From Octopus vulgaris (Eukaryota): DNA of 64,000 nucleotides. The notes below the pieces were generated by a model, which searched no databases, was not told where the DNA came from, and saw nothing but the letters and a program-made list of their open reading frames with translations. Within the stretch, counting starts at the first letter, position 1, and the number at the start of each line of letters is the position of its first letter. Where the stretch lies: NCBI GenBank assembly GCA_951406725.2, contig OX597821.1, forward strand, positions 8,618,001 to 8,682,000, given 5' to 3'. Shown here piece after piece: positions 2,951 to 4,689 of the stretch. The position numbers and the translations under genes are program-made.

Positions 2951-3221
2951 AATGATATCAGTATATATATATATCTAAAATTAATTAAGGATAGAAATTG
3001 ATATTTATCAATTAAAACCAGTGGTCTAGCATATTAAAAAATAATCCGAAGATTAAAATATTTATATATACCAATTAAGAACTGAACACGAAAAGTGGAC
3101 AGTCAACATGCTAGATATAGACGTCAAATCGCCATTCTCCACAAAGATTATGTTCTCAAATCAAACTCAGCACAAAACCAAAGCAATAAACAAGTGAAAA
3201 TATACGAAATAAAATAATTAC

Positions 3222-3284
3222 CCATGTACTGATCAGTTTCGGTTATTATTATCGCAAGGATAACTGTAACATTCATCAGCATGG
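3222..3284 (-). ncRNA. type I hammerhead ribozyme
   Basis: Reverse complement of 3524-3586: ccatg CTGATGA ... GAAAC tgatca GTA catgg. Confidence 0.85.
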
Positions 3285-3523
3285 TCCGTTATGAATGCAA
3301 TTTGCTGGACTAGATGCAAAAACGATACCGGAGTATCGCGTGCATGGAGTTCAACCTATTACATTCGAATGTATCTTTCAAATGCCTTTATTTGGCGCGT
3401 TGAGACCCGAAAAAACCAGCCTGCAGCTAATAATTAGCAGCAGTCGATTTATCGGTTAGAGAACATATTTATTTATATAAAATTAATTAAGGGTAGAAAT
3501 TGATATTTATCAATTAAAACGGA

Positions 3524-3586
3524 CCATGCTGATGAATGTTACAGTTATCCTTGCGATAATAATAACCGAAACTGATCAGTACATGG
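3524..3586 (+). ncRNA. type I hammerhead ribozyme
   Basis: Stem I ccatg/catgg; CTGATGA 3529-3535; stem II gtta..ttatc/gataa..taac (imperfect base); GAAA 3568-3571; palindromic stem III ACTGATCAGT; GUA triplet 3579-3581. Confidence 0.85.
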
Positions 3587-3731
3587 GTAATTATTTTATT
3601 TAGTATATTTTCACTTGTTTATTGTTTTGTGCTGAGTTTGATTTGAGAACATAATCTTTGTGGAGAATGGCGATTTGACGTCTATATCTAGCATGTTGAC
3701 TGTCCACTTTTCCTGTTCAGTCCTTAATTGG

Positions 3732-3763
<32 letters not shown>

Positions 3764-3924: not shown

Positions 3925-4071
3925 GGCAGGCTTCTTTCAATTTTTCTGTACTAAATCCACTCACAAGACCTCGGTCGACCAGAGGCTCTGATAGAAGGCG
4001 TTTTCCTAAGGTGTCACGCAGTGGGACTGAACCCGGAACCATGTGTTTGGGAAGGAATTTTCTTACCACAC
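3925..4071 (-). mobile_element. SINE family A head
   Basis: gcagtgggactgaacccggaaccatgtg and aaatccactcacaag match the reverse complement of family A. Confidence 0.85.
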
Positions 4072-4689
4072 GCGGTGTGATTGAACCCCACACCTCAAGG
4101 CTGTGAAGTCCATTGAATTAACGTGTAAAGTGGTTGACTATTCCATTGGCACGTATGCCCTTAAAGGAATTCTCAATTTAAATCAATGTGACACGGTTGC
4201 ATATTTCAATTACATGTAAAGTTTACCCGAAGCACTTCTAAGCCTTCCATCTACCGAATTTAATATGAAAATCTTCCCAAGTTATATTGAATATATTTGT
4301 CCAATATGCGGTGGTAAATAATCAGGCATCAATTAGGTGGTGAAGCAATCATCATAATCATTCAGTTACACCTTCGTCTCTCTTTCACTTTCTCTCCCTT
4401 TACACAAACACACACAGACAAAAACACACACACATACACGCTCATACACACATTGTTATGTTTAGGCATAGTTATTTTTGCCAATTAAAAACTCGCGCAA
4501 TTTGTTTGATATTCTCTTTAGTTTTCACTCGTATTATTTTTAGGTAGCACATCTGTCAAAGTTCTTTCATCACACATTGTGACCGCTTCAGTAGCTCTAC
4601 GTCCCATGGGCCTCCTCTTGTCCTGCTTATTGTGAAATTATCGACAGGTATACGAAAAATTCATAAATATATATGAATAAAATGTTATG

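Follow-up and report, generated by a model that had tools for sequence, protein, structure and literature searches.

The insertion considered here raises the question of how a non-coding unit with a single predicted hammerhead ribozyme came to lie in a (TA)n run of the Octopus vulgaris genome as slightly more than one full copy, followed head to head by an inverted copy that lacks the beginning of the unit. It resides in the window, by which we mean the whole 64,000-nucleotide (nt) stretch of DNA that was analysed. A preliminary description of this locus proposed that a non-autonomous, retrozyme-like unit was copied more than once around a circular or tandem RNA. Comparison with relatives across the 2.8-Gb genome supports this proposal, and the data favour a circle over a tandem template. 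Specifically, we estimate a probability of roughly 65% that an enzyme borrowed from Penelope-type elements used the two strands of a cut (TA)n target as primers on a single RNA, which was probably circular.

The anatomy of the insertion (Table 1) agrees with most of what had been reported for it. The period of the direct repeat is exactly 502 nt as claimed, and the repeated 43 nt, described as identical, match at 42 of 43 positions. The inverted arm (3521 to ~3739) is indeed the reverse complement of 3063–3290, carrying three substitutions and a 6-nt deletion; the AAC at the arm joint is compatible with both arms; and the outer end lies at TATATATA (3063–3070), from which the sequence continues into (TA)n. 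Because both ends merge into (TA)n, target-site duplications are unreadable. As stated previously, the monomer holds one hammerhead. It is on the minus strand, with the expected core, palindromic stem III and GUA, and a second copy is present on the plus strand in the inverted arm. The monomer was also said to lack an open reading frame (ORF), which matches a longest ATG-initiated ORF of 54 amino acids inside 2976–3738; no protein match was found by tblastn within the window. The reported omission of ~44 bp between the wrap-around and the inverted arm is present here, but it is no fixed trait of these insertions, as the second round of arm A halted at unit position 43. What is fixed across the family is the lack of the first ~87 nt of the unit in arm B. 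Outside the insertion, positions 3934–4080 of the window hold a piece of a short repeat that is very abundant and probably a SINE; its depth is extreme in all four sequencing runs examined.

Table 1. Coordinates of the window copy and of a Penelope-like family in the same genome (window positions unless a contig is given)
Feature	Positions	Strand	Basis or remark
Left (TA)n target remnant	2962..2975	.	Sequence; TA run of at least 6 nt outside 66/84 A ends
Full 502-nt unit, first round of arm A	2976..3477	-	Ribozyme-bearing RNA is the minus strand
87-nt 'tail' between start sites A and B	2976..3062	-	Present in arm A; missing at the start of arm B
Start site B (UAUAUAUA), putative second-strand priming site	3063..3070	-	B end joined to (TA)n: 628 exact matches, 0 in the control
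3′ strand of predicted long RNA rod	3166..3205	-	Fold; first-pass arm ends cluster at its base, unit positions ~185–207
Predicted type I hammerhead, palindromic stem III	3222..3284	-	Motif and covariation; predicted cut between 3227 and 3226
5′ strand of predicted rod	3371..3404	-	Circular fold
Start site A as in template, unit junction (TATATA)	3472..3479	-	209 exact junction matches; end letters
Second round of arm A, 43 nt (wrap-around)	3478..3520	-	42/43 identical to 2976–3018
AAC microhomology at arm joint	3518..3520	.	Fits both arms
Arm B, inverted copy of 3063–3290	3521..3739	+	Second hammerhead copy at 3524–3586
Right (TA)n target remnant	3740..3757	.	Sequence; TA run outside 70/86 B ends
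Family I, Penelope-like (elsewhere in the genome)	L196-L212, e.g. C2:202810800-202819800

A search of the genome with the unit yielded 1773 candidates, 39 of which were scored. Exact motif matches number 747 for end A, 628 for end B and 209 for the unit junction, and all controls, which for the ends were the reversed patterns, gave 0; the element is no chance pattern. Loci were fetched by position from the A list (60) and the B list (40), from wrap-enriched regions (40) and from the first search (30). Before counting, 12 redundant loci were removed; loci that were complex or diverged were then dropped as well, 6 of them from the unbiased set and 8 from the full set. The preliminary description looked to other copies for a constant head-to-tail period of ~500 bp, and 117 of 125 full units measure 504–508 nt, giving a unit of ~505 nt that is repeated up to 33 times. 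The 33-unit array, in which 31 units are identical, begins at A and finishes in an inverted B arm; this locus (L122-L123, C11:25210638-25227799) is a candidate active source. Copies are dispersed and, among the loci compared, have unrelated flanks, with fixed outer ends and an inner joint that differs from copy to copy. No foreign DNA is shared beyond the arms among 29 single-arm loci. In four arrays, variants sit in a subset of units (patterns 110, 0111, 0110 and 0010101), and thus unit numbers grew after insertion and are inflated by local duplication.

These features indicate that the ~505-nt element very probably belongs to the retrozyme-type families and, among these, to the non-LTR retrozymes: it has a predicted type I hammerhead per unit, tandem units, no protein, no LTR layout and dispersed mobility. 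It lacks the ORF for reverse transcriptase (RT) and GIY-YIG endonuclease of an autonomous Penelope-like element, and it has the tandem and inverted layout with a one-end tail seen in non-autonomous ones. The element appears to work like a non-autonomous Penelope element. In a diverged subfamily, identity is 96–100% at unit positions 51–150 and 70–76% at positions 201–400, and this conservation makes the region around the start sites the likely protein-binding part. Family contigs cover the unit in four sequencing runs presumed to be RNA, although neither strand nor ends nor level can be read from them. Between 20 and 47% of the unit's words are present in runs that bear the names of three other organisms (X10 and X17-X20), and X10, the one of these whose contigs were examined, has diverged family contigs, so the family likely extends to related species. 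An older sister family, 61–70% identical to the unit and with 3805 candidates, has the same two-start inverted layout (L216-L240; query L058:3600-3900). A generic hammerhead pattern has 1716 matches genome-wide compared with 130 in the control, and the first 100 of these matches include several distinct families besides the ~505-nt one.

The predicted ribozyme comprises stem I (CCAUG/CAUGG), the core segments CUGAUGA and GAAA, a palindromic stem III and the GUA motif. Rfam returns no hammerhead at gathering score, nor at E ≤ 10, and the ribozyme call therefore rests on the motif and on covariation. Among 15 sequences chosen from 56 distinct ones that had been pre-filtered on 4 bp of stem I, 13 of 21 base pairs show two-sided changes, compared with 6.1 in shuffles and at most 1 when the pairing is slid; 97% of alignment cells pair, and the hammerhead core is invariant. 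Owing to the pre-filter, only stems II and III, which hold 10 of the 13 covarying pairs, constitute independent evidence. Judged by this covariation, the ribozyme is under structural selection, and self-cleavage of the transcript is predicted at the GUA site. Hammerheads of the dimer-acting type are reported to cut in a tandem context (PMC4209133).

Each arm begins at one of two places. Outer ends lie either at unit position 1 (A) or at positions 83–88 (B), where they pass into (TA)n, and the internal UAUA at which the second strand was proposed to start is a fixed site family-wide. Automated calls for 99 parsed, position-sampled loci gave 75 with A and B ends, 17 single-armed, 4 with A and a clipped arm, 3 with two A ends and none with two B ends, and on inspection all three A+A calls have a B end; the biased sets contain three more A+A calls. 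A TATATA-like stretch, matching the target, is found at each of the two start sites. However, a third such stretch (ATATAT at unit position 398) is unused as a start, and one subfamily retains site A with only ~4 matching bases, which argues that position matters besides pairing. The arm joints are mixed: among 77 measured exactly, 28 have microhomology, 15 are blunt and 34 contain filler, so the AAC joint of the window copy is not the rule.

Arm ends further inside the unit provide a record of how far copying proceeded. They pile up at unit positions 185–207 (62 of 170 arms, or 20.8 stops per 1000 nt), where an RNA rod predicted for three subfamilies, which differ by as much as 18%, has its 3′ base. 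Two units show a strand bias in fold stability, and the major subfamily does not (z of -5.3 sense and -5.9 antisense). Stopping at this site depends on the lap: 60 of 124 arms stop there on the first pass and 4 of 60 on the second (p = 3e-9), in a window picked after the data were seen and with a second-pass set enriched for loci sampled for wrapping. The first-pass stall is robust across four window sizes (p ≤ 4e-8) and is seen in each of six haplotype classes. Furthermore, wrapped arms that end at or beyond position 185 do so within 185–207 in only 4 of 46 cases, a count that is immune to local duplication because it is made by final end. Common variants are present in all units of an arm in 213 cases and in one or some units in 33, a predominance that indicates repeated passage through a monomer. 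Copying would unfold a circle, whereas along a linear tandem RNA the barrier, or the 5′ end of that RNA, would be met anew. For this reason the arm ends, as read from genomic copies, favour a circle, and we consider that the template was probably an RNA circle. Enzymes or RNAs that have passed the site once might do so more readily the next time, a heterogeneity that would mimic a first-pass stall, and the pile-up may alternatively mark where a linear transcript has its 5′ end.

This last idea is part of an alternative in which twin priming took place on an uncut linear tandem transcript and the pile-up at 185–207 reflects the transcript's 5′ end or an enzyme-specific stall. Tandem sources exist, as two tandem ribozymes occur within the locus in 10 of 94 cases and one array has 33 units, and a common 5′ end would explain arms that end at equal positions. 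For an anole element in vitro, uncut RNA is described as the main substrate, with no reads ending at the ribozyme site in the results available (PMC11167929). However, a fixed 5′ end, or a rod that refolds in every unit, predicts a pile-up in later rounds that is seen in only the 4 of 46 wrapped arms noted above, and the bias towards all-unit variants is likewise at odds with a tandem template. In addition, the ribozyme appears to be under structural selection, and a tandem transcript is the very context in which such ribozymes reportedly cut (PMC4209133). We therefore regard an uncut tandem template as unlikely.

Arm ends do not accumulate at the ribozyme site itself. An excess of arm ends at the predicted cut (unit position 253) was looked for among 170 arms and is absent, with 2.9 stops per 1000 nt there compared with 1.6–4.9 elsewhere. 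In total, 47 of 170 arms pass the cut, and 228 passages produced 2 deletions. A cluster of ends at position 247 coincides with a TAATTA palindrome, 6 nt before the cut. These observations bear on the possibility that the template was a ribozyme-cut linear monomer and that the enzyme, on reaching the 5′ end of this RNA, jumped back to the 3′ end of that molecule, so that the product looks as if copied from a circle. R2-type enzymes are known for template jumping, which would also yield a stall restricted to the first pass as well as uniform units. Nevertheless, the jumps would have to be near-perfect and scarless to account for so few deletions and no excess of ends at the cut, and the ends at 247 stop before the cut would be reached, which together make monomer jumping quite improbable.

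Whichever its form, the template appears to be the same for both arms. Of 301 common variant sites, 275 have the same state in both arms of a locus, compared with a fraction of 0.20 ± 0.04 for shuffled loci, and in the young subfamily alone the arms agree at 51 of 51 sites (0.23 ± 0.04 when shuffled). Moreover, 13 locus-unique variants, from 9 loci, are present in both arms, and 137 occur in one arm only, as expected of later mutations. Shared variants fit one RNA molecule, two molecules of one source, or later gene conversion alike. Arm-versus-arm differences at recurrent sites were gap-placement artefacts that disappeared after normalising, and a suggestion of two different templates from unit lengths in one locus (L083) was traced to a single slip in a run of A.

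Identical variants and equal inner ends would also be accounted for by a single priming, with the inverted arm arising as a fold-back copy of the first cDNA and ending at the point where its TATATA pairs with the target. This geometry is compatible with 45 of 76 A+B loci, including the window copy. In 25 of the 76, however, neither arm contains the other, and in 16 this holds by a margin of more than 30 nt. Neither arm of these 16 can be a fold-back of the other, which points to arms made independently; in 12 loci both arms wrap. Fold-back may account for a subset of loci, and as the general explanation it is very improbable. Two independent primings on one type of template are instead the likely origin of the paired arms. 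The inner ends of the two arms lie no more than 5 nt apart in 29 of 76 loci, where 6.9 would be expected, and, outside the hotspot, in 12 of 54 (2.0 expected), a tendency that is explained only in part by twin priming on a circle. Palindrome joining, a nick in a shared circle, symmetric trimming and occasional fold-back could each contribute.

It is scarcely tenable that the element is what remains of the pseudo-LTR of a truncated autonomous Penelope, or that it is a satellite that spread through duplication at the DNA level, because, despite a tandem, inverted and tailed layout like that of autonomous elements (PMC8557442) and some local array growth, the ~505-nt period is closed, the dispersed copies combine unrelated flanks and fixed outer ends with differing inner joints, and tblastn of 170 family loci found no arm that continues into a Penelope ORF, the arrangement that would have spoken against the preliminary description.

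Candidates for the mobilising enzyme were sought among Penelope-like families of the same genome by a GIY-YIG search, in which 150 of 6136 candidates were scored. Family I is a young, autonomous Penelope-like element with a 4.81-kb unit and an intact RT and GIY-YIG ORF of 781 amino acids in many copies. In its insertions, the wrap-around repeat measures 557 bp and the inverted arm 239 bp, and the two ends fused to (TA)n lie ~35–40 nt apart. This shared layout of two ends, an inverted arm and (TA)n ties the mechanism to Penelope-type enzymes in the same genome. No canonical hammerhead was found in family I, and within the 150 scored candidates families I, II and III have no significant DNA similarity to the ~505-nt unit. 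Family I also has an upstream open frame of up to 479 amino acids without a clear Pfam match. Three ORF remnants close to hammerhead units were rejected as coding partners: one pair (L219) represents two separate insertions in one TA run, another (L244) is explained by a mini-element that inserted into a copy of family III, and in the third (L242) 1.1 kb of unrelated DNA lies between. The mini-element in L244 (3600-4365) is another hammerhead element, with a period of ~480 and no BLAST match to the ~505-nt unit, and by eye its start sites are flanked by the same short motifs. Family III, which is GC-rich and Penelope-like (3171 candidates; 3′ ends in L286-L310), terminates in (TA)n and contains, ~100 nt from its end, a hairpin that by eye resembles a minimal hammerhead (GAAAC-GUA) with a non-canonical core.

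Together, these results suggest the following route to an insertion. By analogy with published retrozymes, tandem genomic copies would be transcribed, neighbouring hammerheads would cut the transcript to monomers, and ligation would close these into circles. Two tandem ribozymes would be needed for this step, and the window copy, which lacks them, would be a dead end. The enzyme, probably a dimer, would then bind the conserved unit positions 1–190 and cut both strands of a TA repeat. One DNA end would prime at A and the other at B, 87 nt apart, each through 4–8 nt of UA pairing, at starts that are observed to be fixed. The two arms would then be extended in the same direction around the template. 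At the base of the rod, about half of them come to a halt during their first pass, and those that get through would have unfolded the circle and keep rolling; the stop pattern is observed, and unfolding is its probable cause. Repair would join the two cDNA ends head to head, leaving the microhomology, blunt or filler joints found in the copies, and some arrays would later lengthen by local duplication, as seen in four of them.

A broader form of this model can be offered tentatively, at somewhat less than even odds. An enzyme dimer on a single ribozyme-made circle, with one cut strand assigned to each fixed start and both subunits copying by strand displacement, may be how Penelope-like insertions in general acquire their tandem pseudo-LTR, inverted arm and one-sided tail. 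If this is correct, genomic copies record the process as a folding barrier that is felt on the first lap only. The family offers, in its hundreds of young copies, the natural products of a reaction on a 505-nt template, in which the starts, the stall and the recognition region are mapped to the base. The choices between circle and tandem RNA, and between one RNA and two, thereby become testable in vitro, and the lap-specific stall test is applicable to any retrozyme family in any long-read genome.

The priming scheme resembles that of LINE-1, in which twin priming lets both target strands prime on one RNA and the inverted arm is joined with microhomology. The second site of LINE-1 is variable, and its arms cover different parts of a linear RNA. 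In contrast, the ~505-nt element has both sites fixed and arms that overlap in sequence, and either arm can run several rounds.

As a family, the element is like the metazoan non-LTR retrozymes, which consist of non-coding tandem units with one type I hammerhead each, range from monomers to multimers, and have reported unit sizes of 51–972 bp that include the present one (PMC7229834; bioRxiv 10.64898/2026.07.22.740005). Metazoan retrozymes were defined, their circles demonstrated and these circles proposed as templates for Penelope-type enzymes by Cervera and de la Pena in 2020 (PMC7229834), whereas the octopus family is known from its genomic copies. Li, Clavereau and Pollet (2026) linked retrozymes to vertebrate pseudo-LTRs and stated that the mechanism awaits elucidation (bioRxiv 10.64898/2026.07.22.740005). 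As presented in the available text of both reports, circles as insertion templates are a hypothesis without direct evidence. What is resolved here, compared with those retrozymes, are two fixed starts, paired inverted arms, (TA)n targeting and a first-pass stall. A term search found the words 'inverted', 'octopus' and 'cephalopod' absent from the searchable text of PMC7229834, and 'hammerhead' and 'ribozyme' absent from that of PMC13282606. Across the titles and abstract openings searched, we found no report of paired fixed starts or a lap-specific stall. Thus the kind of family, the tails and the existence of two start sites are published, and genomic evidence for one circular, twice-primed template was not found in print.

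Penelope-like elements provide the closest match in layout. Their tandem or inverted pseudo-LTRs, 30–40-bp tail and microsatellite bias are described as unexplained (PMC8557442), and section 15 of that paper names the mechanism of tandem and inverted insertion as an open problem. In vitro, Poseidon of Anolis cuts and extends both strands from two internal starts whose spacing equals the tail, and its enzyme is predicted to be a dimer (PMC11167929). That report, in the text available, proposes a multi-copy mRNA, observes that the start site does not differ between strands, and allots neither start to a particular arm. The octopus element likewise has two internal starts a tail apart, a tail-less inverted copy and microsatellite targets, and its insertion would likewise involve cutting and extension of both target strands (PMC8557442; PMC11167929). 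It differs in that its unit has no ORF, its tail is ~87 nt, and its starts share a short UA stretch with the target, a homology reported to be lacking at the anole starts (PMC11167929). Twin priming on one RNA would explain the long-puzzling layout that Penelope-type insertions have in common with this family.
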